A stretch of DNA of 63,990 nucleotides, the filler included, from Catajapyx aquilonaris (Eukaryota), in the NCBI GenBank assembly GCA_000934665.2. It is 3 parts of 3 records of this genome, joined end to end, with 100 filler letters (N's around TTAATTAATTAA, not from the genome) between each part and the next. Parts side by side here need not be neighbours in the genome. Positions count along the whole stretch, not along the records: positions 1 to 21,313 come from JYFJ02006085.1; 2 more parts are not named here. One strand, written 5' to 3'. The notes under the pieces were generated by a model that did no database searches, was not told the DNA's origin, and saw only the letters and a list, made by a program, of their open reading frames with translations. The first letter of the stretch is position 1. Every line of letters starts with the position of its first letter. Below are positions 913 through 60,850 of the stretch, one piece after another. The translations under genes were made by a program, and so were the position numbers.

Positions 913-1120
913 TATTAACATATTTGGTTCCACAGGTGTGCAGGAAAAAGAGAAAGTCAGCAGTTGCAGGTACTCTATGAAATGGAAAGCAATGTAAATT
1001 AAACACAGTTTGTTTGAGGAGCTAGCCTGATATTTACTGGACAAGAGAGCATTTCAGGTAGCCTCAGGAGGAGTCCAAGTCTTTGGTTCTCAAGTATTAA
1101 CGTCACACGATCTGTTGACA

Positions 1121-4100
1121 TCAGAATCTGCAAGAAACAATAAGGATCATTTTCTGAAAGTATGTAGCCTATACTTATCGAAAGACAACAACCTGGTATA
1201 ATTTACCTTCTACGCCTTTTGACGAAGTTCTTCCCTGGGGTCACAGTCCGATTCGTACCATGCACTTTGAAGTGCTGTCCGCAAGCATTGCACACTCGCT
1301 TGCCCTTGTTCCTCCGCCACATGGATGTGGTAGTTGTGTTGCAGTTGGAGCAGCGCAATGGAGACGCCTGAAACAATTTCAATATGCTATTCAGTTATTG
1401 AATAATGGGAGGTAACACGAGTGAAAAAAACATTTCACTATATCACGCCACTCTATGCAAAGGAGCCAATGCAGATGTCTCTATTGTCTAATCTACAGCG
1501 TCACAGCACCCAGAAACCTTTTCCATCTGGAAAAGTGACAGCAAGTTTGACAATGCTGTTGTCAACAAGGAACAAGAAGGGAAGTGACACTTTTCCAGAT
1601 GAAACCAATCCCCTGGTTGAATTCCCTGGCCTGTCTGGGATGCTTTGAAGCATCTGGGCCATACCGAGATTATTGCACAAGATTCTCGAGTGATTTTGCG
1701 ATGCATCTCATGTCTCTCTCTTCTGCCAGCGCTTCCAACTGATTTCCACGACACTTCTCTTCAACTATATCATATGTTGGGTTAGCTTGCATCTCCCTTC
1801 ATCACTGACTACCCCTCATAGGGAAATGTCGTGATGTTGTTGTTGTTGTTGTTGTTGTTCTCTTCAACTTACTGTACAATAAAATGCATCGGTTCACATT
1901 TTAAATTCAGCGTCAAAATTTAAATTTACTCCAGAAAGAAATCCAAGCAGTACGTATGAAGACTTATAAAAATGCAGATAAACAGTACTGCTCACAAGTA
2001 CTTGAGTGCTATATTACGCACGCAGTCAATGTCATCAGCAATCTTGATTCCTCATCCTACGTAGCTTATTTATTAGTGTGTTTGGTAATATTTGCTTACC
2101 TCTGTTTCACTATGCCTCCTTCCAGCAGAGTCCTGATTTGGTGGATTCATCTGACTCTTGGAGAGGAGGTGGGGTCGAATGTATCTGATCCAGTACCACA
2201 CTGTGGTGGTGCTGAGACAGAATTTCCTGGCAGTTGCTTCCAGGTTGTGACGACACGAGGAATCTCCAAACTCGAATGCGTCCAGCACCTTCCTCTTCAA
2301 GTCCATCGACTGGGAGAGGGACCCAGAGGGTTCCGCTTCCCTCTGGGGAGGCTGAACGGGAAGAGGAAAAAAACAGGTGTGGAGTTTGCAAGTATTACCC
2401 CATCCTGCACGTAACATTTTACAGCATGTTCAAACTGAATTCTTCATGGTGGTTAGCAATTTTTTTCATTACAAGCAGTAACCTGGGACTATGTACATTT
2501 AAATGTTATCAGAAATATTTGCTGCCAATGTCAGGTTGAATATGTACATTCCTTGTTAATATGGGAATCAGCATATTCCCCTCTCCCTTCACTGGCTAAT
2601 CTGATGAGTCACTTGCTTACCCTTGTTTCATCGCTTGTCCTTTTGTCAGCATCTCGTCTTGGTTTGTACCTTTGGCTGTGGGCTGGGGAGGCAAGGAGAT
2701 GGGGTCGAAACAGCTTCACCCAATTCCACGCAGTTCCATGTTTAATGCCAAACTTCCTCGCAATTGCCATCAGGTTGGGACGACGTGAGGAATAGCCAAA
2801 CTCGTAGGCATCCATCACTCTCTTCTTGAAATCCAGTGAGTAAAGTGACTTGCGTCCTCCCACTGAGCCTGGCTGCACAGACGGTGGAAGAGGCAGGGTG
2901 TGTAGCATGTCATAGGGCCAACAGTGTACCCACTGGCCCAAAACGTAGCTAAAATGCAGTGGCAAGAAATGCCGAGGGAGCCATCTTTGAGGAGGTAGAG
3001 ACGACATGAAACATTGCCTTGCCCCTAGACACATGCAGCAACACACACGACACCTCTTTGCAGGGAGATCCCCTGACAGCGTGTGTCTAGGGGCAGGCCA
3101 GTGCATCTGGTCATCTTGCTCGTTGCTGTTTGGTCGGGGAACATTTCTCACAACTGCTTTCTAACATGGTTTTGGGCCAGCAAGTATCCTGATGGTGGGA
3201 CAGGCAGCTAAGTGTTTATCGCAATGTCATTGTCTCATTTGGACCGTCACCTGAAGAGGGTCACTTTCACTTGTTCCTCCTTCCTGCAAACTCTGGTCTT
3301 ACCTTCTTTTTTGCCCCCGTCTTTTCTGCTCCATCGTCAGGCAATGGGGACTTGGATGCACGTTCCCCATCTGGCGGGAGGTCATCCATGTCATCCGAGT
3401 TGGCATCAACACCTCTCGTCTCCTTCTGGAACCAAACATCATTAACACCTGAACACTTTGAAAAGTTACAGGCGTAGCATTGTTTCTATAGCAACTTATC
3501 ATAATTCCTTTTTTTCCCCTTCCCCTTACTCTGACGGAAATAAAACAGCGAAAAGCAGTCCATAGACTTTTGGCATTTCAGCAAGTTCCAACAAGTGGTA
3601 ATAGGAAAAGTTATTTCCTTACCCTAATTTCATGACTTGTCCTTTCCCGAGAGGCTTGTGTTGGTTGGTGCACCTGACCCTTGGCTGAACGGGCAAGGAG
3701 ATGGGGCTGGAGACTCTTCACCCAATACCACACTCTTCCTGGCCTTAGGCCAAACTTCCTTGCAGTTGCAGCCACATTGTGACGACATGAGGAATCACCA
3801 AACTCGTAGGCCTCCAATACTTTTCTCTTGAAAAAAGGTGACGCACGGATTGGCAGTTCACCTGAGCTTGGCTGAAGATGAGGTGGAAAACAAACATTTC
3901 AGAACTCTCTGTCCAACACTGATCTCTTTCCCTCCAGTACTCAACCGATCTGCATATTTAGTAATTATTCCGACTGATCTTGAGTCCATCGTCCTCATTG
4001 CCTAATTATCTGATGAGGCTTACCTTTTTCCTATTCCCTAACATCTGATGAGCATCGTCCTTTGGTTGGCAGGCACAAAGGTGAGGTCGCATGGCTTTCA

Positions 4101-7100
4101 CCCATCGCCTCACAGCACTTTCCCGTATTCCAAACTTTCTTGCAGTTGCAGCCACATTGTGAAGGCATTTAGAATTGCCAAACTCGTATGCATCTAGCAC
4201 CGTTTCCTTGAAGGCCAGTGAGTAGATGCATGGATTACGGGTTGTCCCTCTCCCTGAGGTCGGCTGCGACAGAAATAAAGTTTATTAATTAAAATCCTAC
4301 CTCACTTGTCACACTAACATCACTGATCAAGTTTATTTTTTGCAATTTATTCCTGTTCATTTTATGATGTAAAAAAAAGTCTTTCGAACAATCATGAAAC
4401 ATGGGTTTCTGAACCCATAAAGTTTTCATCTTATTTGCAGCATAAGCATGTCCAATCGCACAGTAATGCAGGCCTTCCATCAAAACCATTCACGCAATTT
4501 TTATTATTATTTATTTTTATATATTATTTATTTATGATATCCAGTGATAGGGCAGAGGGGGTACAGCTCTGGGTCCCAAAAAAACAAACAGTACTTTTAC
4601 CAGTATAATTATAGTATCAAGGACACGTAAATGATTGAAATGCTTGGTCACTGATTTAAGGTACATTTACCTGGGAGCGATTTGATCATGCGATGCCATC
4701 GCCGAGGGATAACATCGCTGTGTAACCCAAGTTCGAGGCGAAAATAGACTGCTACTTTCACCACAAACAATATTGCTTACTTGGGTTACTCAGTGATGTT
4801 ATCACTTGGCGATGACATCGCATGATCAAATCGCTCCCAGGTAAAGGCACCTTTAATTTCACAGGAGTAACATTCGAAGCCCTTTTTCTCAAAACTCTTC
4901 TCATGTGGGTTGACCCATTATTTCATATTGCCAGTTCATGAACTTGGCATTTCAGCAAGCCCCAACAAATGTATGGTAACAAGAAAAATAAATTCCTTTA
5001 CTCTCATCTGATTCTGGGCCGAATGACCAATGAGACGGGGAAGGAGAAACTTGACCCAATACATCACTGTTGCTTCTGGTAAGCCAAACTTTCTTGCAGT
5101 TGCACTTGGATTGTGACGACATGTGGAATCGCCAAACTCGTAGGCTTCCAACACTTTCTTCTTGAAATCCAGGGAGTAAAGACGTGACGTGCGGATTGCC
5201 AGTTTGCCTGAGTGTGGCTGCAAAAGAGATGGAAAACAAACATTTCAGAGCATAACTTTATAATTGATATATTTAAGGAGGTTGGCCCAGCATTGCCTTT
5301 CAACCTCCAAGGATAGGGAAGGAAGGAAGCGGCTGTGGCCTATTATACGGAAGCGACCCCGGAATTATCCTAGAAAGACCGTGGAACACCACAGAAAACC
5401 ACAGTCAGGGTTGCCGGCCCCGGGATTCGAACCTAGGACCTCCCGATTAGCAGTCGGACGCCCTATCCACTATGCCAACCTGCTTCGGTTCAGAGCATAA
5501 CTGTCTGTCCAACATTGATCCCTCTCTTTCAAGGACTCAAGCATACAGCTGATTTAGTAATTATTCTGGGTGACGTTGAGTCCTCATCCTCTTTGCTTAA
5601 CCCTCGGATGGTGACGTGGGCACTTTTTGTGACCAACGACCTTTTTTTTGCTATAACTTGGCAAATTTAGGACATTCGAGATTCATCTTTGAGAACATTT
5701 TCGTTTGACTATTTATGTGATGAATTACGTTTAGTTTAAATTTTTTGAGCAAATAGCACGACCAGAAAAAAATAAATTAGGTGGCAATGCGTAGATGGGG
5801 CCTAACCAAGATCCGGTCTGGCGGCTCCCGGTGGCATCCCAGGCCGCCAAGGGGTGGAATCCCCCTACCCCCGGGAGTTGGCCCCGACTGATTTTCTTTC
5901 CGATTTTTTTCTGATCGCATTATTTTCTAAAAAAATGTAAACTTAACGCTATTTGTCGTAGAAGGAATCACACTATGATTGTCTCAAAAGTGAAGCCCGA
6001 ATGTGCTATATTTCGCCAGATATAACAAAAAATATGGCTTGGTCACAAAAAGTGCCCATGTCACCGGAGAGCGAACATTTCGCACGTCACCGTCTGAGGG
6101 TTAATAATAATCTGATGAGGCTTATTACCTCTGTCCCATTGCTTGACGTCTGATGAGCATCTTCCTTTGGTTGGCAGGCGAGGAGGTGAGGTCGCATGGC
6201 TTTCACCCAATACCTCACAGCACATGCGCTTATTCCAAACTTCCTTGCAGTTGCAGTTGCATTGTGACGACATTTGGAACTGTCAAACTCGTAGACATTG
6301 AGCACCATTTCCTTGAAGGCCGGTGAATGGCGGGTTGTCCCTTTCCCAGGCGTCGGCTGCAATGGATATTTAAAAGTAGATGACATCTGACAACCTCAGT
6401 TATCAAGTTAATGTCACTGCTCAAGATAGGCCTGATGCATAGTGTTTTTTTTTCCATAATTTCTTCCTGTTCATGACAGAAAACAAGAATTACCATTGGT
6501 TTTGGTCCCTTGCCCTTTGCACTGGATGTCTCGAGGTCCTCACTTTCTCCCTGACTCTGTTCCAGCAACTTAACCCGAGCAACTAGTGTTGATCTCCTTG
6601 CTGTCGATAGCACCTCCACCTAAACAAGAGGGGATTTTACTCAAATTTGCAAGGGCAATTGCAACTGTGGAATCATCACTAATCACTCTTGCTGATTTGT
6701 GTTCTTACATTTTGCGACCTGAGATCTGAAACATCCCGAGACGTTGTTGAATTTCTTGTGCTGCACTCATCTTGTTGGACTCCCATCTGAAAAGTGAAGG
6801 GTTTTAAAAAGTTGTCTCTTGCTGCAAACTTTCCTTTCCACCTTTCTTTGCGTCCTCTTCTGGCCTGCTCCCTTGTTGGGAATGGGGTGTTTGGGGGCAG
6901 GTTTCACACGCACTGGGACTTCACCTCTGTCGTCCAAGTCAGAGTCGCTGTGGCACGTCTCTTCCTGGAAACAGGCAACAATAATGTGAGGCGTTCAAAA
7001 AAAAAAAATTGCGATTCATCTTTACAACCACTTTTCTTCTTTGAGAAATACTTATCTAACTGTACGACACATTGTAAAAGGTGTTGAGCTTTCTCATGGA

Positions 7101-8110
7101 AAACATCAAGATGCAATTGAAAGTACGCGAGATATGATTATTTTGTAACCTAAGAAACCAATACACTACATGTCTATGCAGAGCCATTCCGTGAAGCACC
7201 TTGTTTCCCAACAAAGGATTCATGATAATAAAGACAGTGACATTGAAAATTGCATCCTGGGACCAAACAAAGATTTCGTGACTGTCAAATTACTGTTGCA
7301 TGCACGTTTCTTAAGTGTTCATGACAGAAAGTACTTTGGGCCATTCCAACCACACACAGAAGATGTCTGTCTCATCTGATGTGCTCCCCCAGCACCCTTT
7401 GTTGCAACACGCTTTACGTCTGACGAAATCTTTCGAATGATGCACATCCATCTGAATATTGCAAAAATGTGTAAAATACTTTGCAAATAAAGGTCGCTGA
7501 TGAATAAATAGGACCAATGCCATGACTGACTGTTTTTTTTTTCACACTTACATTTTGCAAATCCTGGAGTTCCGAGGAATCCTGCAGTAGACTAGCTCCA
7601 GCACCGTAGGTGAGTCCCACCTGGAAGGAAGTGTCCATTAATATTGAGCAGTGCGTGAGGACAGACGTGGCCTGTGACCCCTCTGCCTCCATCCCAGTCA
7701 GAGTGGCGTGGACCATCGAAGGACTTGGGTCCCTGCCATTAACCGCCCCATACCTGATCCTCCTGTGCCCTGTTCCGTCCAGGCCAGCCGTCAATGGAAA
7801 TGAATTCGAACGAAGGTTCTTCTGGCAGGTCGCCATTCCCACCGACCAGGTTGGACTCTTCTTCCTCCTTCAGGTGTGACTGATCCTCTCCTTCATTTGG
7901 TCTCTCCTCCTCCTTGACCATTGTTACGACGCTCCATTCTTCCTCCTCTGGCTTCACCTTGACCTCATCTGAAGGCCCATGCGTGAACTGGTGGCACAGC
8001 AGCTGCAGCCTGGTCCTGAAGGTGGTGTCCAGGCAGTACACGCACCTGAACTCCCCTTCTTCGGTGGCCATTCTGATTATTGGGCCATGCTGCGGCTGGG
8101 GGAAGCTCAT
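1121..8110 (-). CDS. Gene A: C2H2 finger + 6 Brinker-type HTH DNA-binding domains + C-terminal GATA-type zinc finger (13 coding exons, ~803 aa)
   Basis: Manual GT-AG splicing gives an open frame. Exons: 7754-8110 (FRCVYCLDTTFRTRLQLLCHQFTH), 6842-6964, 6709-6786, 6494-6619, Brk 6129-6356, Brk 5002-5217, Brk 4024-4263, Brk 3623-3871, acidic spacer 3303-3425, Brk 2621-2872, Brk 2100-2351, GATA 1207-1367, terminal 1121-1127 (TGA). The repeat consensus YSLDFKKKVLDAYE..C RHN..ATARKFG....V..W resembles the Brinker DBD (FTPHFKLQVLESY..CKGNQRATARKYNIHRRQIQKW). The exon 1 donor is uncertain (alternative near 7621). Confidence 0.8.
1207..1367 (-). CDS. GATA-type zinc-finger exon of gene A
   Basis: Translates as ASPLRCSNCNTTTTSMWRRNKGKRVCNACGQHFKVHGTNRTVTPGKNFVKRRR. 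It has a cag acceptor at 1370-1368 and a gt donor at 1206-1205, and resembles the GATA C-finger (CSNC.TTTT.LWRRN..G..VCNACGLYYKLH..NRP). Confidence 0.88.
2960..3210 (-). mobile_element. Degenerate piggyBac-like transposase C-terminal Cys-rich fragment in an intron of gene A
   Basis: Reads HWPAPRHTLSGDLPAKRCRVCC..C....CF, similar to the HWP...KRCRVC motif of PGBD proteins. It is absent from the homologous introns of gene B. Confidence 0.35.
4659..4852. mobile_element. PIF/Harbinger-type MITE
   Basis: Long imperfect TIRs (AGGTACATTTACCTGGGAGCGATTTGATCATGCGATG...) with a TTA target duplication on both sides. Confidence 0.75.
5258..5488 (-). mobile_element. tRNA-derived SINE with 14-bp TSD
   Basis: A box TGGCATAGTGG and B box GGTTCGAATCC on the minus strand. 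TSD TTCAGAGCATAACT at 5244-5257 and 5489-5502. A related copy lies at about 42865-43036. Confidence 0.85.
5601..6100. mobile_element. piggyBac-type MITE (500 bp)
   Basis: TTAA on both flanks; TIR CCCTCGGATGGTGACGTG / CACGTCACCGTCTGAGGG; asymmetric subterminal inverted repeat (GGGCACTTTTTGTGACCAA). The paralogous site near 4000 is empty. Confidence 0.85.
7200..7380 (+). mobile_element. Possible decayed pogo/Tigger DDE fragment
   Basis: HDNKDSD...VKLLLHARFLSVHDRKYFGPFQ weakly recalls LDNHSSH...LPPHTSH.LQPLD..VFGPFK. Confidence 0.25.
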
Positions 8111-8307
8111 CTCCTCTGCAGGTTTCCTGTGCACATGACAACAATGTAATTCTGGTGCACACGAGGCAGGCAGTACTGTTGGCTTCACACTCACCTCTAT
8201 AGGAAGAAGACGCCAGACGGCAGAGAAAAGGACTCAGGGAAAAGGCGGAGGAGATAATAACCCAAAGGAGATAACAAAGAGACGCTTGACGTTCCATGAA
8301 GAGATCG

Positions 8308-8315
8308 TATCGATA
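8308..8315. promoter_or_regulatory. DRE motif (TATCGATA) in the putative promoter of gene A
   Basis: Perfect palindrome upstream of the 5' UTR exon, conserved in context (gagatcgTATCGATA) with the gene B promoter. Confidence 0.55.
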
Positions 8316-9276
8316 CGTACCTACCCAGCAATCGCCCATCTCCAGATCCCGCCAAAATTATACCGATAGTTCGTCCATCGATATCTGTCAGAATAGAATT
8401 CGCGAATATTCGAACCACTCGATTCGAACTGGTCACTTCCAAGCAGACGTGTTTCTCCAACGACTTTTAGAACAGCCTCTTAATAGTTAACTGGTGTTCA
8501 AGAGGCACCAAGAGAGGCACTCATACAAACTGACAAACAGCTGTTCATATACCAGCTAGTTGATGTACACACGATGGCAGCTTCTCCCCCATTCAAAATC
8601 ACAAACAGAGACTCATCTCCATCCCACAAAACCCAGGAAGAGACTCCTCTGCCCCTCACCTTATCCGCCACACTCGGCACCCAATCCCCACTGCCGTCAT
8701 TCAGGTCACCACTATCGGAGAATACTCTTCCGTGCAATCCACTCGATGTTCCATTTGATGAATTTCTGCACAAGTCGTCCGTAAAGCACGGGATGATGAC
8801 AGTTGGCTTTTGGGACGAACCTAACCGCTAACGCGTTGGAGGGATTCAGCAGTTGTAAACACAGTTTGTTTCCAGAGCAAGCCTGATATTTACTGGCTAT
8901 GAGATCATTCCAGCACCTTCAGGAAGCAGTCTTTTGTTCTCACAATTAACATCACATGATCCATATAAAGTGTATACAAAGCCACGAACAATAATGGCAT
9001 TAACATTACACCATAAGCCCTCAACTCCAATGAGAGTCAGTAGCACAGGTCCCTTGTCTTCTCAAGTCCCACCAGGTAAACATATGGCGTGTTAAGCGCT
9101 ACTGGGAAGTTATACATGACAAGAGTTCCACAACTAAGAGATCTATATCTCATCAAGAACCTATTCACCTGCAGTCTTGATGTAATGTCCTTGTCAAAAC
9201 CTGCAAGTAACAACAAGGATAACTGCTGAAAACATCACATTCACCGAAAGACAACTATCATTACCATTACCTTCTA

Positions 9277-9432
9277 CTACTTTTTGACACCCTTCTTTCG
9301 TTGGATCACAGTCCGATTAGTCCCAGATCGTATCACGTGCTGTCTGCAAGCATTGCACAGTCGCTTGCCGTTGTTCCATCGCCAGCGTGATGTGGTACTT
9401 GTGTTGCAGTTGGAGCATCGCAATGGAGGCAA
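9277..9432 (-). CDS. GATA-type zinc-finger exon of gene B
   Basis: Translates as LPPLRCSNCNTSTTSRWRWNNGKRLCNACRQHVIRSGTNRTVIQRKKGVKK*, with a phase-0 cag acceptor. Confidence 0.85.
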   Translation of the reverse strand: MPPLRCSNCNTSTTSRWRWNNGKRLCNACRQHVIRSGTNRTVIQRKKGVKK

Positions 9433-12400
9433 CTGAGACATTTGAAACGCCTTAGTACCTTGTATTTAAATGTGAGATAACATCTGGATCATGCAGTAGA
9501 GTAATATAGCCATTGGTCTCGAACCCTCACCCTAAACAGGTTATTATTATTATTAGTGTCTTCGGTAATTTCCTCACCTTTGTTCCGTCATTCTTCCTCT
9601 CAGCAGAGTTTTTATTTCGTGGCTTCAGCACCTTCTTCTTCAAATCCACCTTCCGAGCAGGCTGCACAGGAAGGGAAACAAAAATAATTTAAATATCACC
9701 CAAGTTTGCAGTTTGAAAGTACTCAAGTATACCTCTGCATATGTAATAATTTTAAAGCATGTGCAATGCAAATGTCTTAGAAAATTTTTAGCATCATCAA
9801 CAGTAACAGTGGACATTTCTACATTTATGCGATCAGAAACATTAGCTGCATGAGTTTGGTTGAATAAGTTGTCTGGAGGCTTTTCCAGCCACTGGGTAGT
9901 CAGATGAATCACTTTCTTACGCTTGTGCTTTCATCAGAGTCTAGTTGCGGTTGCGTCTGGCTTGGGGAGGCGTCAAGGAGGTGGGGTCGGAGGTCACTCA
10001 TCCAATACCACACCGTCCCTTTATTCAAGCCAAACTTCTCTGCAGTCCTGGTCAGTTGGTGACGATATTTGGAATGACCGAACTCGTAGGCATCCAGAAC
10101 TTCCTTCTTGAAATCCAGCGAGTAAAGTGACTTCCGCCCTTTCCCTTTCCTTGAGATTGGCTGCAGAGTTGGTGGAAAACAAACCTATTAGATCACAATT
10201 GTCAATTCAATCACTCTTTTCTTTCAAGTCGCTTACTGAAGCCTGGGAATTTAATTTTCCCCTCCTATCCCTGACCAATCTGATGAATCATTTGCTTACC
10301 CTTGTTTTGTTACTTGTGCTTTCATCAGCATCTCGTCTTGGTTGGTGCATCTGGCTTTGGGCTGGGGAGGCTTCAAGGAGATGGGGTCGGAGGGCCTTCA
10401 ACCAATACCACACCATCCCTTTGTTTAAGCCAAACTCCTCTGCAGTTCTGGTCAGTTGGTGACGATATGAGGGATCACCGAACTCGTAGGCATCCAGAAC
10501 TTCCTTCTTGAAATCCAGTGAGTAAAGTGACTTCCGTCCCGTCCCTCCCCTCCCTTTCCTTGAGATTGGCTGCAGAGTTGGAAAACAAACGTATTAAGAT
10601 CATAACTGTCGATGAAAGCTGAACACTCCGGTTCTACCATCTTTCTTGTTCCCTTCTGATTTGCTCCTTCAGCAGGCAAATTGGACTTGGATGATGGTTT
10701 CCCATCTGGACGGAGGTCATCTCTGTCACCCAAGTCGGTATTAACACCTCTCGTCTTCTTCTGGAACCAAGCACATACAAAATTTTAACGAGATGGATAT
10801 TATGACACAGGGGAAAAAAATGTCCTACAGTGGTAATAGGAAAATTTATTTCCTTACCCTCGTGTCAAGACTTGTCCTTTCATGAGTGTATTTCTTTGGT
10901 TGGTTCACCTGACTCGGGACTGAACAAGCAAGATGGGGTTGGAGGTCTTTCACCCAATTCCTCAGAGCGCATGTGCTTACTCCAAACTTCTTTGCAGTCG
11001 CATGGAAGCTGTGACGATATGAGGAATCACCATATTCGTATGCATCCAGCACCTTTTTCTTGAAATCCAGTGAGTAAAGTGACTGACGTCCTCTCCCTTC
11101 CCTTGAGATCGACTGCACAGATGGTGGCAAAGAAACATATTAGATCATAAACTGTCAATGAAATACTCTGGTTTTACCTTCTTTCGGGCTCCCTCATTCG
11201 ATAATGTGGCATTTGCTGCTGGTTCCCCATCTGGAGGGAGGTCATCTTCATCACCCGAGCTGGCATTAACACCACTCGTCTCCTTCTGGAAACAAACATC
11301 AACAACTCATGAGGACTTTCACAATTAATTCACAGCTGGAGCAGGGTTTCAAGCATGCTACATGCAGCCTTATAAAGTCAGCCAGGAGGGATACATGTCC
11401 AACCCTTACCAAATATTCTCTCTCTAAAAATTGCCATCAGGACTCATCAGTGGCTTATTCATGTTGTGGTGAAACATTACAGTGGTATATAATAGGAAAA
11501 GTTATTTCCTTACCCTAATGTCATGACTTGTCCTTTCATGAGCTTCTTTCCTTGGTTGGTCCACGACCTGACTCTGGACTGATTGAGCAAGATGGGGTTG
11601 GGGGTCATTCACCCAACCCCACAACGTCCTTCTGTTTAAGCCAAACTTCTCTGCAGTTCTGGTCAGGTTGTATCGACATTTGGAATGACCATATTTATAT
11701 GCGCCCATCACTTTCTTCTTGAAATCCAGCGAGTAATGTGACTTGCGTCCTGTCCCTTCTCTTGGGATTGGCTGCAGAGTTGGTAGAAAACAAACGTATT
11801 AGATCATAACTGTCAATGAAATCGGAAATCTCCAGTTTTACCTTCTTTCTTGTTCCCTTCCGTTTTGCTCCCTCGGCAGGCAAAGTGGACTTGGATGCTG
11901 GTTCCCCACCTGGAGAGAAGTCATCTTCGTCATCCGAGTTGGCATTAACACCTCTCGTCTCCTTCTGGAAACAAGCATCAATAACACATGAGGACTTTGA
12001 AAAGTAATTTACAGCTGCATGATAATGATTTCAATAACAACATATCAGAATCCTTTTCCCCCTTAACCCTTTGACGGCAGAGGTTTTTGGCTCCTTTTTC
12101 CTTTTCTTCATGAAAATTTGTGGTAGGAGTGATGAAAAACAATATGCTCCAATATTGATCATATTAACTGGTGGTGGTCCTTTTGAATGTAAAATGCCGA
12201 AAGGATTCATGTTCCAGAAAAATTATTAAAGTGCAATTAATTTAAATTTTTCAAGTCCCTATAAAACTGTGACCATGGTTACATAACACTAAAACACTGT
12301 ACTATCAGAAACTCCACAGAGTCCAGACTTACGGCACACCCTGTTCTGACTCCGCGGGAGGGGGTACGTTTAGCTCACGCTGGGAGGCATACGCCATGGG

Positions 12401-15400
12401 AAACTTTAGTGCGCCCAGTTCAAAAACCCGCAGATCATCATATGATGCACGTAGGCCTCTAAGGGTTTACCGTACTCTGATAGCAAAAGGCAGTGTGTAA
12501 AAAGAAGTTGACAGACTTGGCAGTTCAGCAAGTCCCAACAAAGTGTGGTAATGGGAAGTGTCATTTCCTCACCCTTATTTCATGTCTTGCGCTTTCATCT
12601 CGCCCTGATTGGTTCACTAGACTCTGGGCTGAACGGACAAGAACACGTGGTAGGAGCAGCTTCACCCAAGCCCACACTGTTCCGTGATTCAAGTCAAACT
12701 TCTTTGCAGTTGCCCTCATGTTGTGACGACATGGGGAATCACCAGACTCGTAGGCTTCCAGCACTTTTCTCTTGAAATCCAGGGAGTAATGAGGTGACGT
12801 GTGGATTCGCAGTTCCCCTGACTTTGGCTGCAGAAGAGGTGGGAAACAAATATCTTGAACATAATATATTGTCAATCCAATCTTGTTTTCTTTCTCGAAA
12901 GTACTCAAAACAAACTGCCCAAAATGTATGTACACAGGGGCGGATCCAGGGGGGGGGGGGNCCAAACCGTGGAAAGTGAAATATTTTCTAAATTTTAATC
13001 TGCAAATTAGGCTGATTTTTTGGAAAAAGTGCTACCAATTTCATCAAATACTGTACAGACCCATTCAAATCTCCTACATTCACCTAAGCTCGTGTGACCT
13101 TGAACACCTCAAAAATTTTCGCCTGCGGCGCTCTTGCTCCCCGCCCTTTACAACTTATGCCCCCGCCCCGCCTCGCAAACGCCACCAAGTCCGCGGTATG
13201 GTACAGAACGGTCCGACAGGACCATGACGGCATGACCCCCCCCAAAATCGAAAGTCTGGATCCGCCCCTGTATGTACAGATTCCAAATGATCATGAGTCC
13301 ATCATTCTCATTGCTTAATACGCGAAGTATAAGTTGGTTCCAGCAACATAGCAGCGTCAAGTGAATCGGCATAAGCCGAGACAAAATTATCATGCAAGTC
13401 AATGAGGTGGGTTCCAATATTTCCAAACTTTTCCCATAGTTAGTACGAATATTGCTGTTTTCAATGCTGAATATTTTAAACATTTTTTTGCACACCTTTA
13501 ATGGGAGGTTCCAGGTTGAGAGACAGCGGGTTCTGAGAGTTCCTTTCCTCTCTTTAGCAAGAACTGCAGTACATGTAGGGTATTTAACAATGGTTAGAGT
13601 ACTTCGGAGAGTGCAGAGACCAACAATACAGCACTGAATATTATATTGATAGAGCGGGCCACACGGCACCACGAGAAACTAAAGGAGAACCTTGATAGTC
13701 GTGTGTTTGGTCTCAGCAGCATTGCAATGACGTATGTTTAGATTGTGTTATCTTCAAATTTTCAAACACTTTCCCATTAAAACATTTTCAAAGGTAATTT
13801 TAAGAGTGGCATTAATGTGAAATGGCGTCAAATGAAGCAGCATAAAACGGACACTTCCTGTAATCTGATGAGGTTTACCTTTTTCCTATTCCCTAACATG
13901 TGATCAGCATCTTCCTTTCGTCTGCAGGCAAGGAGGTGAGGTCGCATGGCTTTCACCCAATACCTCACAGCACCTGGGCTTATTCCAAACTTCTTTGCAG
14001 TTGCATCATAATTGTGATGACATTTGGAATTGCCAAATTCGTAAACATCAAGCACCTTGTTCTTGAAATCCAGTGAGTAGCGTGAGTAGGTTGTCTTGTT
14101 CCCAGAGATTCGCTGCCATAGAAAAAAGAAATCCTTTGAATTATCTGAAATTTTCCAGAAAATACCCAATAATAATAATTAATAATAATAAATGAAAAAA
14201 ACAGCACTCAGCCAGCAATAAAATTAGCAAAAGATTCATTAGGGGCCAGAAAGCCAGGAGTTCCTGTACATCCCCTTGTGAACAAGTGGAAGGTCAAATC
14301 TTTGCTTTTGATTATCACGAAACTGTGTGTTTTTTTGGGGGGACTTTGTGCGTTCCTCTTGCATGCCCACTATGCATTCAATTCATACCCAGAATTGCAA
14401 TAAGGGAGGGACTCATGTTGCTAAGAAAGGCAACAAGTAAACCATGTTTGGTGACATGAGAAGTGCTGCACCGAGCTTCCATTAACCCAATAATTCATGC
14501 CACATATGCTGCATATTACATCATTTTCCAGGAATATTTAAGAGCAAACGATGCAGATTCTTGCGTAACATGCACCAGCAAATTTTGACATGTTGAAAGG
14601 GGAATGGCTATTCAATCTAGAACTGGTGTAGTTTTCCTACTTACAAACATTTTTCCAGGCTGCCCTGTACGTACAGGAATTACGACCATCGGTTTTCGCC
14701 CCTTGCCCTTGGAACTGGATGATTCGAAGTAATCAGAAAGGTCCTCGCTGCCTCCCTGACTTCTCAACTTCATCTTAATTCGACCAACCAGTTTTGATCT
14801 CCTTGCTCTCGTTGGCACCTCCACCTAAACATGCAGGGAATTTACTTGAATTTGTAATCACACGTCATCCTCGTTGTTGTGTGTTCTTACCTTTTGCGAC
14901 CTTGGTTTTGAAACATCCTGAGATGGTGTTGAATTTGTTGTGCTGCAGTCATCCTCTTGGACTTCCACCTGAAAAAGGAATAGTTTTAAAATTTGTGTAT
15001 TGCTACAGTGCTGGACAAATTAGCCGTCGCTGAATGTTTTTTTCCAGCCGTGGCGGCGGCGGCGTTACCTGGCAACCCTGTCCGACGGACCAATTCAAAC
15101 ATCAGCCCATGGAGAGCGCTTCCATTGTTGCCACTGTTTACAAATCGAATGAGTGAGTGCGCAGACAGAAGAGATCCGTCGCTGGGTCATCCGCGTCACT
15201 CCCTCGATTTGTAAACAGTTGGGCAACAATGGAAGGGCTCTCCATGGGCTGATGTTTGAATTGGCCCGCCGGACGGAGTTGCCAGGTAACGCCGCCGCCT
15301 CCGGAAAAAAACATTCGGCGACGGCTAATATGTCCAGCACTGTACAAACACTCAATTCCACCTTTATCTTCCGGCCGGCTCTCTCCCCGGGAACGGTGAG

Positions 15401-15895
15401 TTCGGAGGCAGGTTTCCCACCAGCCGGGATTTCACCCCTGCCATCCAAGTCGGAGGCACTGCCACACGCCTCTTCCTGGAAACCAGACAACAACGATGTA
15501 CGACCTTTTCAACCACTTTACTTCCTCCAGAAAATACTGTCAGCGTAAAACCTTTCAATTTTTTTAATGCATTTGCTCATCATTCCAGCTGGATGGAAGT
15601 GCTCATTCACGACCTGCAGAACATACTATTGTTGTCCTGTTAAATGCGATTAAACCTGTAGTACCTGCTTTACCCCATTGTTTCTCTCCGTCCCAGTCAT
15701 TGTTGCGGCGAACACCTCGTCGGCCGGCTCCTCTTTTGGCTCCACCTTGACAGGGTCTGAAGGGCCGTGGATGAACTGGTGTGCCCTCAGCTGAAGCCTC
15801 GTTCTGAACACCGCATCGACGCAGTACACGCACCTGAACTGCCCTTGTTCGGTGGCCATGCGGCTTGGTCCATGCTGCGGCTGGTGGAGGCTCAT
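9277..15895 (-). CDS. Gene B: paralog of gene A; C2H2 + 6 Brinker-type domains + internally deleted 7th repeat + GATA finger (15 coding exons, ~889 aa)
   Basis: Exons: 15665-15895, 15362-15475, 14891-14968, 14684-14824, Brk 13879-14112, Brk 12573-12827, spacer 11842-11964, Brk 11514-11771, spacer 11178-11285, Brk 10858-11112, spacer 10638-10760, Brk 10300-10569, Brk 9921-10160, deleted repeat 9578-9661, GATA 9277-9432 (TAG). All lengths are multiples of 3, all have AG/GT ends, and no internal stops were found. Confidence 0.82.
12067..12465. mobile_element. piggyBac-like insertion in a gene B intron
   Basis: TTAA|CCCTT...AAGGG|TTTA ends; absent from the homologous gene A intron near 3520. Confidence 0.5.
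12935..13270. mobile_element. hAT-type MITE
   Basis: TIR CAGGGGCGGATCCAG / CTGGATCCGCCCCTG with 8-bp TSD TATGTACA. Confidence 0.85.
15006..15342. mobile_element. Palindromic Tc1/mariner-type MITE (family P)
   Basis: TA|CAGTGCTGGACA...TGTCCAGCACTG|TA. Almost the whole element is an inverted repeat; a near-identical copy is at 41868-42193. Confidence 0.85.
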
Positions 15896-16053
15896 CTTTT
15901 CAGCAGGAAGAAAGTGAAGGCATGCAGAACAATGAGGAGATGTGTCCCTCCTCGGGGTGAACAATGCGGGAAGGAAAATGCCGTTGGAAAGACGACAATG
16001 GAAAAAGAGGCAACAAAGAGACGACGACGTTCGACGACCGTTTGGAGAGATCG

Positions 16054-16061
16054 TATCGATA
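16054..16061. promoter_or_regulatory. DRE motif (TATCGATA) in the putative promoter of gene B
   Basis: Same position relative to the ATG exon as in gene A, within a CpG-rich stretch. Confidence 0.55.
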
Positions 16062-16199
16062 GCTCTACCACCAATCTCCCGAATCCCGATGCCGGCAAAG
16101 CGATACCGATAAGAGTGGGCATCGATACCTGGCGGAATATTCGAACTGGTTTGGCACTTCCTTCAAACCTGCTAAGGTAATGTAAAGAAATGAAATGCC

Positions 16200-16815
16200 A
16201 ATTAAACACAGTTTGTGGCTTCCAGAGCAAGCCTGATATTTACTGGCTGAGTGAGATCATTCCAGCACCCTCAGGAAGCAGTCTTTGTTCTCAACATGAT
16301 CCGTATTAAAAAGTGTATACAAAGGCACAAAAATGGCATTAACATTATACTGATACAAAAACAAGGCAGGAGGCTTTTCACTTCCTCCTTAACTCCATTG
16401 TGTAGCCACTGAACTGACAAGGTATATAGACATGTACAGTACTGGCGAGAAATTTCACAACTATGACTTCCATCTCATATCAAGGACACCATTTTCCTAC
16501 AGTCTTGATGCAATTAATCAGAACCTGCAAGTAACAATAAGGATCACTGCTTATTAAAACATGTTATTCACCAAAAGAGAAAATATCATTATCATTACCT
16601 TCTATGACTTATTGATGCCATTCTTCCTTTGGGTCAGAGGTCCGATTCGTACCATGTCGTTTGATGTACTAAACCATTGCACACTCTCTTGCCATTGTTC
16701 CTCCGCCACTTGGATGTGGTTGGATGTTTTTCAGTTGGAGCAGCGCAATTGATGTGCCTGAGACATTTTAAACTCCTTAGTATCATGTATTTAAATGTCA
16801 GATAACATCTGGATA
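16200..16815 (-). pseudogene. Relic 3' end of a third paralog (gene C) with a dead GATA exon at 16599-16757
   Basis: Homologous to 8857-9490 and 1000-1380. The exon reads AHQLRCSN* (second Cys codon changed to TGA), followed by a frameshift and loss of the fourth Cys. Homology stops near 16815 and no Brinker exons are found upstream. Confidence 0.8.
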
Positions 16816-19260
16816 ATAATAATAATCATTAGCCTATGTGTAAGTGTACTACTTGTATTATTATTAGTTTTGGGCGACCTCATTGCCCGAAGATGAGCTA
16901 ATGAGGTCATCACGTGCCAAATTGGCGGCCGAATATCGACTCGCATACGCACATTAGTGTGTCAGCAGGCTAGTTGTGGCAGCTATCTTGGCGAGGGATG
17001 GTGCCGTGGAGGGTGCTGTGGGTGCTGTGGGTCGTCACCGCTCCTGGCACCTCATCCCTTGGCGACGATGACTGGGTTTGGGAAGATGAAGGCAGGGACG
17101 CTGCTGCTGGGGAGGACCACTTGAGCTGGGGTTGCAAGGGCGGCGAGACGGGAAGCAGACAGTCCCTGCAGTTTCACGGGGTCTGCCTGTCCTCCGCCCC
17201 GGGGCCGCCCCCGGTCCTGCTCCCGCCCTTCATGTGCCGGACGCCTCATCACGCCAAAGGATACGTCAACGTCCATCGCGTCAGATGCGATCGATTGACA
17301 GGTAGAACAACTCGTGGCCAGACGCGCTCGAGACGCGCTCGAGATAATAATTTAGCACGCGCATCTATTGCAAGTGTGGCATCGATCCGGCTATACGAGT
17401 ACTTTGTATGTAAGACTGCTCATTGATTGTCGCGGTATGAATGATTGATGGTTGGGTGAACAACCTGGCCCACAACGACCCACATCGGGGATGGAAGGGA
17501 ATGAAAATTGTAAATATGATTGGCTATATAGGCAATACTCTGTTTGTCCACGGTGACTCATCACCATAGTGTTTGTAGTTCTGGTTTCGCCCTTCGAGTG
17601 GCAGTAGTGTGCAGGGACGATGCGCGCCAACGCGAACGGTACTAATCGTACTAATAAGTGGGTCGGGCCGGGCAGTGTTGCCAAGTTTTGTCAACGCTTT
17701 CACTCTCGCTATTACATACTTATTAAATAACAGTTCATGACCACGTCCCGAGCGCGTCTGGCTTTTACGTTAAGAGAGCTTATTATAGTTAAGTTCAACC
17801 TGCAAACGGAATTCAAGTTTGGCGAAGGAGTGACGTCACAAAAAACTATTATTATTTTCGTCAGACCCTGACGTTTGCGAATCGCGTCTGTTCCTTGGCG
17901 ACGAGAAGGGATTGGAAATAAAGGATTCATCAGGACGCATCTTGCCAGCTTCTGAAATGGATCCAGATCGAGATGGCACTCCCGGAACGTTCCCTCTCAG
18001 CGGAAAGGTATGACGCAACACTGCGAACATAGTTTGTCCGGGGTGAGTCATCACATCAACTCAGCCAGGCGCCCTGAGAGTGGGAGGAGTGCTACCTATG
18101 CGAGGGTGGTACACTACGTCGACCTGTCTGAGTTGAAGTGATGACTCACCCTGGACAAACAAACACGTTGGTATATATATCTTTGTTTCTGAACAGTTGA
18201 AAATCCGGTTGAGTCGTCCATGGCTGATCAGAGGGATCTACCTGGGTGACCTGTGGTTGCGCCACGGGCTGGGCGAGTGGTGGAGGGTGTCCGGCCCCGG
18301 GGCAAAGGTCAAGGTCAGACTGGAGGCAATCTTCCCCGGGCGGGACTTCAATGTGGAGCTTCCCGGGGCAGACTCGCATCTTCCCTTTGATCCGAGGAGG
18401 TCATGGTGGATCACGACCCGTCTGCCCTTCTCGAGGCCATTCGTGGCTGACCACCTGACCTTTGACCCCGCGCCCTGGAGGAGGATTGACCTCCTGGGCT
18501 GCCCCTGGGACTTCCAAAGGGAGTTTGACAACTCCAGGGCGCCTCCAACTCTGTTCCCTTCTCTTGGATGCCACCTGGTTCTCGCCCCTGGGCCGCCCCT
18601 GACCCGGCTCCTGAGGGTGCCCGAGCACTGGAAGCAGCCCGGGAACCGAATGTGGATAGAGCGGTCATGCGCTGGGCAATGCGCAGGTCACAACAACTTT
18701 GCCCTCTGGCAGGTATATGCTGCATAACTCTCAAAAATGGGGTGATCTTTCCTACGCGGCGAATGAGTCGGGGTGGGGGTGTGGGGCGTAGTTCAGAGAG
18801 CGCGTCCGAATTGGTTGACAGAATGAATGTGACGCCCGAGTGCATCTCGCCGTGACAGAACCACAATAACGTTCGTTGTCCCGCGGCGCCACAAAACGTT
18901 GCGGTTACATAATAACCTAGCTACAGCAAACGTCTCCGCAATGCACTAATAAAATCATCACACTAATAGTCGGACCCTGCCTGGCGGGGCCACTAACAAT
19001 ATGCCACCCATTTGGAAGCGCTACCTGAACTGCCCCTCTCCACCGCCATATTCCCGCCATTTCGTCGCGTAGTAAAGATCAGCCCTAGACCATCATATGC
19101 GCATGCGCTGTAGGTGTCCGAAAGCGAGTGGAGCTGCGGCTGCCTCGAGTGGTCCTCGACCTGGGGTCAGCTGCCCAGCGAAGGGTCGTGCCGGATCCCC
19201 TCCTGCGAGCACCTGTCTCTGGTCAGACGCAGTGACGCCATGTCCTCGTTCTATGATGTA

Positions 19261-21313: not shown

Positions 21314-21413
21314 NNNNNNNNNNNNNNNNNNNNNNNNNNNNNNNNNNNNNNNNNNNNTTAATTAATTAANNNNNNNNNNNNNNNNNNNNNNNNNNNNNNN
21401 NNNNNNNNNNNNN
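21314..21413. other. Artificial contig linker
   Basis: 44 N + TTAATTAATTAA (stop codons in all six frames) + 44 N. Confidence 0.95.
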
Positions 21414-42712: not shown

Positions 42713-42812
42713 NNNNNNNNNNNNNNNNNNNNNNNNNNNNNNNNNNNNNNNNNNNNTTAATTAATTAANNNNNNNNNNNNNNNNNNNNNNNNNNNNNNNN
42801 NNNNNNNNNNNN
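42713..42812. other. Artificial contig linker
   Basis: Identical to the linker at 21314-21413. Confidence 0.95.
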
Positions 42813-46000: not shown

Positions 46001-46348
46001 TGTACAACAGGCATTGTGAAATCAGTTATCTCCCACGTATTGAACAATATGCAACTGCAAACAAATAGGGTCAATTATACAACGAAACTAGGTGTCCTAC
46101 CAATGTGCTACAAGTCAGGATAATGTCATTTGGTTAGTCAACAGAAGAGCACTTCTACTTTCTTCTAGTGTGAGCTCATTATGTTCGACAAATGCAAAGT
46201 TCTACATATGTCTTAAAGAATTCCTAGGAATCTTCTGATATAGAGAAGATCAATGGCATGAAAAAAAAACACAAGTCATGCAATTTGCAATATCTTTTGT
46301 GAGAAGCTAATCCTGATGTCGCATTTTTTTGTTTGTAATTTTGTGCAG

Positions 46349-60794: not shown

Positions 60795-60850
<56 letters not shown>

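Follow-up and report, generated by a model that had tools for sequence, protein, structure and literature searches.

Two six-module genes and their last exons

The window, the whole stretch of 63,990 nucleotides of Catajapyx aquilonaris DNA that was analysed, carries on its minus strand 12 Brinker-type helix-turn-helix (HTH) modules, one exon each, six of them in gene A and six in gene B (Table 1). The predicted order of either protein is a short N-terminal trunk bearing a single C2H2-like finger, six HTH modules and a C-terminal GATA-type zinc finger in the final coding exon, with acidic/basic spacer exons that would lie between some of the modules. Atlas neighbours of the C2H2-like finger in the first exon of gene A carry C2H2 families, an observation that serves as a lead only. 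Each of the 12 module exons is bordered by CAG/ and /GT, is of phase 0-0 and has a length divisible by 3, and the outermost ends of the array, 2100 and 14112, are those given in the earlier note. The 12 helix strings quoted there are all found exactly in the window, in the order A1–A6 and B1–B6 on the minus strand.

Table 1 Positions of gene A and gene B features in the window and the evidence for each (X1, one public run; slashes in splice motifs mark the cut)
Feature	Position	Strand	Evidence
Brk-type HTH exon A1, helix FGISACAVRYW	6129..6356	-	BrkDBD 31.5 bits; X1 joint 5217/6129
Brk-type HTH exon A2, helix FGLPEATVMYW	5002..5217	-	BrkDBD 29.2 bits; X1 joint 5217/6129
Brk-type HTH exon A3, helix FGIRESAVRRW	4024..4263	-	BrkDBD 31.6 bits; X1 joint 3871/4024
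Brk-type HTH exon A4, helix FGLRPGRVWYW	3623..3871	-	BrkDBD 24.9 bits; X1 joint 3871/4024
Brk-type HTH exon A5, helix FGIKHGTAWNW	2621..2872	-	No BrkDBD row in Pfam; 127.6 bits against the window's own profile; X1 contig 2621-2874, 0 differences; joint 2351/2621
Brk-type HTH exon A6, helix FCLSTTTVWYW, most diverged module	2100..2351	-	BrkDBD 14.2 bits, below cut-off; X1 joints 2351/2621, 1366/2099
Brk-type HTH exon B1, helix FGISPGAVRYW	13879..14112	-	BrkDBD 27.0 bits
Brk-type HTH exon B2, helix FDLNHGTVWAW	12573..12827	-	BrkDBD 30.3 bits; second in-frame donor taken
Brk-type HTH exon B3, helix FGLNRRTLWGW	11514..11771	-	BrkDBD 16.6 bits; linked to B4 in X1 contig record 5, 108 letters between
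Brk-type HTH exon B4, helix FGVSTCALRNW, apparent mosaic, helix part nearest A1/B1	10858..11112	-	BrkDBD 20.6 bits; second in-frame donor taken
Brk-type HTH exon B5, helix FGLNKGMVWYW	10300..10569	-	No Pfam family; 137.9 bits to own profile; X1 joint 10160/10300
Brk-type HTH exon B6, helix FGLNKGTVWYW	9921..10160	-	No BrkDBD row; 135.5 bits to own profile; X1 joints 10160/10300, 9661/9921
Gene A last coding exon, GATA-type zinc finger then stop codon	1203..1367	-	Spliced to A6 (X1 joint 1366/2099, cut +1); DNA 79% identical to gene B's exon (repeat D9)
Gene B last coding exon, GATA-type zinc finger then stop codon	9277..9432	-	Pfam GATA 30.7 bits, cut-off 26.8; X1 joint 9432/9578
Gene B small basic exon between B6 and GATA exon	9578..9661	-	X1 joints 9661/9921, 9432/9578; AG/GT, 84 nt, phase 0-0
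Predicted acidic/basic spacer exon between A4 and A5	3303..3425	-	HMM 85.5 bits; TTCCAG/ and /GTAAGA, 123 nt
Predicted spacer exon between B4 and B5	10638..10760	-	HMM and splice borders
Spacer exon between B3 and B4	11178..11285	-	HMM; 108 nt, equal to the 108 letters separating B3/B4 in X1 contig record 5
Predicted spacer exon between B2 and B3	11842..11964	-	HMM and splice borders
Predicted spacer-type exon, gene A trunk	6842..6964	-	HMM and borders; homologous to 15367-15483 (repeat D11)
Predicted spacer-type exon, gene B trunk	15362..15475	-	HMM and splice borders
Gene B trunk exon directly upstream of B1	14645..14822	-	Exact stretch within 505-letter X1 contig record 6; GTAAGT donor
Gene A trunk exon homologous to 14645..14822, ends inferred	6494..6617	-	82% DNA repeat D12; donor ATG/GTAATT
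Gene A first coding exon region, ATG at 8110, one C2H2-like finger, 3' end inferred	7742..8110	-	Sequence reading; no Pfam family
Gene B first coding exon, conserved part, same C2H2-like finger	15729..15866	-	77% DNA repeat D10 with 7941-8078; ORF

The 12 Brk exons, 6 spacer exons and 2 GATA exons all read open with intact splice sites, and the predicted sites are matched by joined exons in contigs of run X1, which connect A1–A2, A3–A4, A5–A6, A6–GATA, B5–B6 and B6–basic exon–GATA, show CT..AC intron ends at the joints and are free of differences in several pieces. The gene B GATA exon scores above the Pfam PF00320 cut-off over profile positions 1–27 of 36, a score that holds for this exon alone, the gene A exon being assigned by direct reading and by its DNA identity to that of gene B. 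The exons of both genes encode four Cys as C-X2-C...C-X2-C with 16 residues between the Cys pairs, where the usual spacer of a GATA finger is 17. A Pfam scan of the genes returned no KRAB-like effector, and neither gene as modelled contains a transposase catalytic domain.

Together these features suggest two expressed genes from a tandem duplication, probably members of a lineage-specific animal family, whose modules would have arisen by exon and gene duplication with divergence afterwards. In a tree of the modules A1, A3 and B1 group together, as do A2, B2 and A4, and B3–B6 form a clade of their own. Since the tree mixes modules of both genes, we infer that module duplication within a gene postdates the gene duplication. 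B4 appears to be a mosaic.

Brinker kinship and predicted fold of the modules

The earlier note had aligned the repeats to the recognition helix of Brinker, and this alignment is correct, as a profile of the 12 repeats matches PDB 2glo (E=1.7e-6) with ArkFglsegtvwyW aligned to ARKYNIHRRQIQKW. Pfam places 6 of the 12 modules above the gathering score of PF09607 (BrkDBD; 24.9–31.6 bits, cut-off 23.4) and gives BrkDBD rows for nine in all, three of them below the cut-off, with no row for the remaining three; weak matches to HTH_Tnp_1, HTH_28, HTH_23 and CENP-B_N are also returned. Among 1.84 billion representatives the 12-repeat profile finds Brinker proteins first (best E=1.5e-26, a mayfly protein with 3 stretches), and no library protein in this search carries six such stretches. 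The AlphaFold model of A1 is a four-helix structure (helices 12–25, 33–40, 44–54 and 56–60; mean pLDDT 72), for which 2glo is the first Foldseek match, with probability 0.99 but an E of 0.07. VIA aligns the model with 2glo at Z 5.2 and an rmsd of 2.6 Å over 49 residues, although other HTH folds tie (CENP-B 1hlv, Z 5.2; TnpE, Z 5.8). Judged by Pfam and the 2glo profile match, with which the AlphaFold model and structure search are compatible, the modules belong to the Brinker-type DNA-binding domain family.

The flanking motifs described earlier as largely fixed do reflect a conserved scaffold, in which S18, K22, V25, A44, F47, W57 and P63 are invariant across the 12 modules and F21, Y29, E30, G32, S34, T43, K46 and L65 are at least 90% conserved in the same alignment. 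FK..VL.AY, C..N, ATARKFG[IL] and the helix 3 W are common to the modules and Brinker (PF09607; 2glo). Like the products of the window's genes, the Brinker proteins of hexapods are multi-domain, with two or three of these domains on long linkers. The genes differ from Brinker proteins in having six modules rather than 1–3, one module per exon and a C-terminal GATA finger, an architecture that also sets them apart from Brinker as repressor of the Dpp pathway.

Variation and codon evolution at the reading surface

In 146 Brinker domains taken from the best 71 library matches, R47, R48, Q49, Q51, K52, W53 and L54 have entropies of at most 0.2 bits and the helix RRQ[IV]QKWL is near-invariant, whereas the window's modules retain only the W. 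Scored against a canonical motif of [HN]RRQ[IV]QKWL in helix 3 plus NQR before helix 2, which Brinker proteins keep almost always in its helix 3 part, RRQ or QK survives in none of the 12 modules, W53 in all and N35 in nine, and canonical positions 46–49 and 51–52 carry 1.3–2.75 bits. The quoted 11-mer covers the last residues of helix 2, the turn after it and 7 of the 11 helix 3 residues (AlphaFold helix 3 corresponds to alignment columns 51–61). Averaged over its columns, entropy is 1.34 bits, versus 1.00 in the remaining folded core (permutation p=0.09). Within the core, the 11 consecutive columns with the most variation are 50–60 (1.59 bits), and the inter-domain linkers vary more still (1.68 bits).

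Codon models of the 12 modules, fitted on a fixed tree with weak nodes (bootstrap 49–78) and ignoring recombination though B4 looks mosaic, give an omega of 0.72 for whole exons, 0.60 for the quoted 11-mer, 0.85 for helix 3, 0.89 at nine pre-specified canonical contact columns (0.89–1.02 across contact-column estimates), about 1 in the linkers (0.96–1.13) and 0.41 in the rest of the core fold (p=9e-8 against 1). The DNA-facing columns change faster than the remaining fold (0.89 vs 0.41; LRT 4.99, p=0.025). The earlier note had proposed a site-wise codon test of the 12 exons with omega above 1 expected in the helix; no pooled helix or contact estimate is clearly above 1, and beta exceeds alpha in 1 of 91 columns only (column 51, uncorrected p=0.014). 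With omega=2 simulated at the nine columns, an estimate as low as 0.89 arose in 0 of 40 runs, and with omega=1.5 in about 1 of 40; these runs exclude a uniform omega of 2 or higher across the contact columns. The power to detect an omega above 1 at these positions reaches 0.55 for omega 2 and 0.88 for omega 3. An omega near 1 fits neutral drift as well as a mixture of purifying and positive selection, between which these estimates cannot separate. In this stretch the variation of the reading surface resembles near-neutral drift and does not prove selection for novelty. Of the interpretation offered earlier, the part that stands is that fold residues are kept and DNA-facing positions differ between modules; diversifying selection is not supported by these 12 modules.

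Readings of the variation and relation to known systems

We give even odds to an explanation in which the hypervariability is mainly a release from Brinker constraint combined with paralogue divergence, in expressed tandem six-module genes that end in a GATA finger. Selection would retain the residues that build the fold, and the surface used by canonical Brinker for reading DNA, having lost all canonical residues, would now change, on average, at a roughly neutral rate. The product would be a string of basic HTH beads joined by long, flexible linkers, each bead having a different surface. The beads may still contact DNA, with a weak preference particular to each, and may act together with the GATA finger through avidity. 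Distinct DNA specificities of the modules are plausible, and a contiguous zinc-finger-like code is disfavoured by the length, variability and low model confidence of the linkers.

Less probable, though deserving some weight, is that the modules no longer read DNA sequence and are folded basic beads for non-specific DNA, chromatin or protein contact, with targeting left to the GATA and C2H2-like fingers while the old reading surface drifts. The complete loss of RRQxQK and contact-column omegas equal to those of the linkers agree with it, as do the neutral core of B5 (net charge 0, pI 6.9) and the dominance of W and Y at columns 55–56 with frequent G or P at columns 51–52; exposed W/Y and a P or G at the helix start could, in many modules, mean a loss of sequence reading. 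Against this, the contact columns hold 4 acidic residues in 108 and 54 polar or basic ones, the modules retain helix 2 (ATA[RK]KFG) and W57, by which this fold sets the helix on DNA, the scaffold is under clear purifying selection, and six modules per gene would be costly as mere spacers. The core is basic in 11 of the 12 modules (pI 9.1–10.4), which with the few acidic contact residues hints faintly at a kept DNA contact.

Unlikely, in our judgement, is diversifying selection on the helix, by which each module would read its own DNA word and the array would be a fast-evolving combinatorial reader that might pursue transposons in the manner of KRAB zinc-finger genes. The variable columns fall on canonical contact positions, the genes are tandem with turnover of module number, and M2a fits better than M1a (LRT 8.6 on 50 core columns), a nominal positive-selection signal whose class of omega about 1.9 holds columns 35, 40, 41, 50, 51, 52, 56 and 60, with 6 of these 8 (posterior >0.9) among the nine contact columns. 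That LRT is reached in 0 of 80 null simulations without rate variation, but in 7 of 80 at gamma shape 3.29 (the iqtree estimate) and in 43 of 80 at shape 1.0, and the signal is not robust once rates vary among sites. Column 51 speaks for such selection, as does dN/dS of 1.96 in the 11-mer of the A2/B2 pair, while the pooled omegas and their simulations, linkers that match the helix in speed, and the A1/B1 pair, in which the helix changed less than the remaining core (dN 0.06 vs 0.20), speak against it. The better fit of M2a leaves room for some adaptive change.

KRAB/C2H2 zinc-finger clusters are tandem paralogues with arrays of small DNA-binding modules, a conserved scaffold, variable contacts and a module number that changes by duplication. 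The window's genes resemble them in these traits; they differ in their HTH fold, in having each module as its own exon, in linkers that are long, variable and of low confidence rather than short and conserved, in the lack of a KRAB-like effector in the Pfam scan, and in the lack of a robust sign of positive selection at contact residues (pooled omega 0.89). An HTH-based counterpart of these clusters is a doubtful, speculative reading: programmable readers built from exon-sized Brinker modules, renewed by exon duplication and helix-segment swapping (at which the B4 mosaic hints), GATA-anchored and directed against changing targets such as mobile elements. Hardly credible is plain neutral decay of pseudogene-like remnants, which the fairly high overall omega and neutral linkers would allow, but which is contradicted by the purifying selection on the scaffold, along with open exons, intact splice sites and spliced X1 contigs.

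Transposase-type HTH domains (Passer, POGK and the CENP-B N-terminal domain) share the small HTH fold predicted for the modules, which in sequence are clearly most similar to Brinker proteins, and the modules may have originated from a transposase HTH. The BrkDBD motif occurs in Passer pogo transposases and vertebrate POGK, according to the available text of PMC7386202. A vertebrate BrkDBD family of variable copy number is already in print, the available text of PMC4263296 listing 42 genes that encode a BrkDBD in Takifugu flavidus, 5 such genes in Tetraodon and none in T. rubripes, with evidence from transcripts; for this pufferfish expansion that text gives counts, and arrays, one module per exon, helix variation and a GATA finger are absent from it.

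For the Brinker-type modules, release from constraint with paralogue divergence is the reading that we prefer. The 12 modules also carry a caution, in that their codon data fit near-neutral change of the reading surface with no positive selection shown. To our knowledge, nearly all known arrays of DNA-binding modules whose contact residues vary are made of zinc fingers. If true, a family of Brinker-type HTH arrays would be a second, independent case of the zinc-finger-like design, here with a symmetric exon per module, a GATA fusion and canonical reading residues swapped for varied ones, to which the window contributes a pair of expressed genes, each with six modules and a terminal GATA finger. 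Such a family would also serve as a natural experiment in the re-tuning of an HTH surface.

Gene architecture and spliced transcripts

Genes A and B are two tandem paralogous genes on the minus strand (window 1200-16200). Stop-to-stop frames yield twelve related open segments, each holding one Brinker-type helix-turn-helix (HTH) exon, A1–A6 and B1–B6, preceded by a polypyrimidine tract and CAG and followed by GT[AG]A. For B4 and B2 the second in-frame donor was chosen, which retains the conserved tail. All twelve lengths are multiples of three, and all twelve Brinker (Brk) exons are therefore phase 0-0. The outermost exon ends coincide with the interval in which the earlier note had placed the repeats, and the helix strings it quoted are found letter for letter in 12/12 cases. 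When a twelve-module HMM was run over 2718 stop-to-stop frames of at least 15 aa, only the twelve rose above noise and no decayed extra Brk copies appeared. The lone N at 12961 falls within the intron upstream of B2 and touches no Brk exon; another lone N is at 26555, and the N runs comprise two pairs of 44 bases at 21314-21413 and 42713-42812.

Both genes close with an exon for a GATA-type zinc finger. Six more phase 0-0 exons encode a spacer of 36-41 residues, acidic first and then basic; four lie between Brk exons and two in the 5′ trunks, with TTCCAG acceptors and GT donors directly at the exon edges in 6/6. Being phase 0-0 throughout, the Brk and spacer exons may be cassette exons. The first coding exon is predicted to encode one C2H2-like finger, for which Pfam returns no family; ESM Atlas neighbours of the N-terminal exon with C2H2 families, at 0.93-0.94, are a lead only. 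Elsewhere in the window, several long open segments look, by eye from the ORF list, like putative exons of a large chromatin-remodelling-type gene, with Cys and His residues clustered in a PHD-like manner near 62.4-62.6 kb, and another open segment carries long threonine-rich mucin-like runs.

Exons and other features of the window
Feature	Position	Strand	Remark
Brk exon A1	6129-6356	-	
Brk exon A2	5002-5217	-	
Brk exon A3	4024-4263	-	
Brk exon A4	3623-3871	-	
Brk exon A5	2621-2872	-	
Brk exon A6	2100-2351	-	
GATA-type zinc-finger exon	1203-1367	-	end of gene A
Brk exon B1	13879-14112	-	
Brk exon B2	12573-12827	-	
Brk exon B3	11514-11771	-	
Spacer exon	11178-11285		
Brk exon B4	10858-11112	-	
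Brk exon B5	10300-10569	-	
Brk exon B6	9921-10160	-	
GATA-type zinc-finger exon	9277-9432	-	end of gene B; Pfam GATA 30.7 bits vs cut-off 26.8
Skipped stretch	9199-9268	-	
tRNA-like element	5412-5483	-	
Decayed GATA-exon-like stretch	16634-16825	-	
Mucin-like open segment	20149-20727	+	
Long open segments	46262-62613	+	

The only public sequencing run with contigs matching the two genes, X1, is of unrecorded kind and consists of contigs only, so that it gives no expression levels and its uncovered parts are uninformative. Its contigs were compared with window 1000-16500. Canonical CT..AC joints suggest that X1 is RNA; these ends correspond to GT..AG introns on the minus strand and lie exactly at modelled exon borders. 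The joints are 5217/6129 (A1-A2), 3871/4024 (A3-A4), 2351/2621 (A5-A6) and 1366/2099 (A6-GATA) in gene A, and 10160/10300 (B5-B6) as well as 9661/9921 and 9432/9578 (B6-small basic exon-GATA) in gene B. One contig joins B3 to B4 with 108 letters between them, the length of the spacer exon listed in the table, and several pieces show zero differences from the window. Because the joints match the exon borders, transcription and splicing of both genes follow the model. Four joints that are non-canonical or cross between paralogues (2352/3749, 3833/6132, 12814/6135 and 8071/15865) were set aside as paralogue or assembly chimeras.

Directly past the gene B stop codon (9277-9279), a 70-nt stretch with CT..AC ends is absent from X1 contigs, which indicates an intron of the 3′ untranslated region. 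The A1-A2 intron contains a tRNA-like element that scores 33 bits against Rfam tRNA. Summed contig depth in X1 peaks by a wide margin in the bin around it (4734 versus <50 in other bins), as an abundant SINE of tRNA origin would produce.

A Brinker-type module

Genes A and B encode Brinker-domain proteins, a known kind. The Pfam BrkDBD family places 6/12 modules over its cut-off, lists 3/12 under it and lacks 3/12. The twelve-module profile matches 2glo, the solved Brinker domain, at E=1.7e-6 and pairs ArkFglsegtvwyWvk with ARKYNIHRRQIQKWLQ; by this alignment the earlier note had the register of the recognition helix right. An AlphaFold model of A1 from the 12-row alignment has four helices at mean pLDDT 72, with exon ends below pLDDT 50 and helix 3 at residues 44-54 (alignment columns 51-61). 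Foldseek returns 2glo as the first match (prob 0.99, E 0.07), and VIA gives Z 5.2 and an rmsd of 2.6 Å over 49 residues against 2glo, with CENP-B and transposase HTHs tied; fold alone therefore cannot tell these families apart. For B5, ESM Atlas offers only HTH/transposase-like clusters at <=0.89, as leads only.

A search of 1.84 billion representative proteins with the profile yields 240 at E<=0.001 and 68 at <=1e-10, and none at E<=1e-30. The top matches, the first of which is a mayfly protein, carry two or three stretches, not six, and this library holds no close relative of the two genes. A word-based homologue search with A3 among 'longer' proteins gave 20 candidates, none of which scored, and a scan of metagenome contigs with the 12-repeat alignment gave 61 pattern stretches, none confirmed.

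Multi-Brinker arrays whose helices vary are described in none of the papers that our literature search returned. The BrkDBD passages of a pufferfish genome paper report 42, 5 and 0 BrkDBD-encoding genes in three species, with transcript support, and describe neither arrays nor helix variation (PMC4263296). BrkDBD motifs are known in Passer pogo transposases and vertebrate POGK (PMC7386202), and the module may thus derive from a transposase. The domain of Brinker itself reportedly adopts its fold only on DNA (PMC8085671).

Helix variation and codon tests of selection

The varied recognition helix is clearest against canonical Brinker domains, in which the helix reads RRQ[IV]QKWL almost throughout. 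The comparison took all 146 domains from the 71 best library matches, picked by rank and not by helix, in the same profile alignment. In the canonical set N35, Q36, R37, R47, R48, Q49, Q51, K52, W53 and L54 all have entropies <=0.2 bits, and no part of the domain is conserved more strongly than its reading helix. The window's twelve modules reach 2.45 and 2.75 bits at positions 36-37 and 2.08, 2.75, 2.13, 1.63, 1.04, 1.28 and 1.78 bits at positions 46-52; RRQ or QK is kept in 0/12, and W53 alone stays. It is in this entropy contrast that the observation stands out most strongly, and what the earlier note had observed, a varied helix on a conserved scaffold, is confirmed. The contrast within the window is milder: the quoted 11-mer (columns 47-57) has a mean column entropy of 1.34 bits versus 1.00 bits for the rest of the core (permutation p=0.09), the core's most variable window is columns 50-60 (1.59 bits), and the linkers average 1.68 bits.

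Regional synonymous and non-synonymous rates were fitted on a fixed codon-model tree from a codon alignment of the twelve exons, a setting with weak nodes and fixed branch lengths that ignores recombination although B4 is a mosaic. Omega is 0.72 for whole exons, 0.85 for helix 3, 0.48 for the core without the 11-mer (p=8e-6 versus 1), 0.23 for helix 1 and 1.13 for the linkers. Nine 'contact' columns (39-41, 50-53, 55 and 56) were taken as the canonical family's near-invariant polar positions, a choice from the canonical family alone that avoids post hoc selection of variable columns; conservation was used because the literature search yielded no paper on 2glo contacts. Omega there does not depart from 1 (p=0.71) and exceeds that of the rest of the core (0.41, p=9e-8 versus 1; LRT 4.99, p=0.025), with no difference from the linkers. 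In counts over eight close pairs, pN/pS is 0.86-0.90 in the helix, 0.90 in the linkers and 0.44 in the rest of the core.

A comparison of M2a with M1a over 50 core columns gives an LRT of 8.5-8.6, with about 18% of sites at omega near 1.9 (columns 35, 40, 41, 50, 51, 52, 56 and 60). In parametric simulations under the null, an LRT of 8.6 is reached in 0/80 runs with no rate variation, in 7/80 with the gamma shape of 3.29 that iqtree estimates from the same alignment, and in 43/80 with shape 1.0, so that the signal may come from ordinary among-site rate differences. On these data the earlier proposal of diversifying selection in the helix finds no support from omega (0.60 in the 11-mer, 0.89 in the contact columns), from the M2a signal, given this match by null runs, or site by site: with each site given its own synonymous rate, beta exceeds alpha at one helix column, 51 (uncorrected p=0.014, among 91 columns), and at one linker column.

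Module history and function

The tree does not pair A1–A6 with B1–B6. Modules A1, A3 and B1 form one group (separation from the rest, bootstrap 100), A2, B2 and A4 a second (95) and B3–B6 their own clade (90), while A6 sits on a long branch. Module duplication within each gene therefore followed the gene duplication. Outside the Brk exons, DNA repeats at 76-85% identity connect gene A with gene B in their GATA, trunk and spacer exons. A third stretch resembling a GATA exon, now decayed, lies immediately upstream of gene B. It has 85% DNA identity to the beginning of gene B's GATA exon and has lost the first Cys pair in its open frame; it is probably the leftover of a further gene copy. The flanks of B4 are nearest B3, B5 and B6, and its turn and helix 3 have 81% identity to A1 and 79% to B1, versus 67% to B3, a pattern that hints at helix-segment conversion between modules or at convergence, 42 nt being too few to decide.

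Core pI is 9.1-10.4 in 11/12 modules, and the former contact columns hold 4/108 acidic and 54/108 polar or basic residues, a composition that weakly fits continued DNA contact. Every canonical reading residue is gone, and a reading helix does not typically carry a W/Y pair such as that at columns 55-56 or begin with P/G. The linkers, long and variable, are modelled with low confidence. All this speaks against a contiguous code like that of zinc fingers, and it leaves room for drift of the modules following loss of sequence reading, which we consider rather unlikely. True diversifying selection, with its M2a signal, seems a little less likely again: on nine simulated columns, an estimate <=0.89 arises in 33% of runs at a true omega of 1, in 3% at 1.5 (power 0.20) and in 0/40 at >=2 (power 0.55 at omega 2 and 0.88 at omega 3). 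For the twelve modules this rules out diversifying selection that acts strongly and uniformly across the reading surface, while weaker or episodic selection at a few sites is compatible with the check. Decay of the arrays is highly improbable, the scaffold being under purifying selection, the frames open and the RNA spliced, which makes these working genes.

The interpretation in the earlier note is partly supported; that the modules may each read a different DNA word is plausible, and transposons as their targets are a conjecture of that note. The best reading, to which we give about an even chance, is that diverged, weakly specific HTH beads would act in a chain together with the GATA finger, and that the helix variation would stem chiefly from the lifting of the Brinker constraint and from divergence between paralogues.
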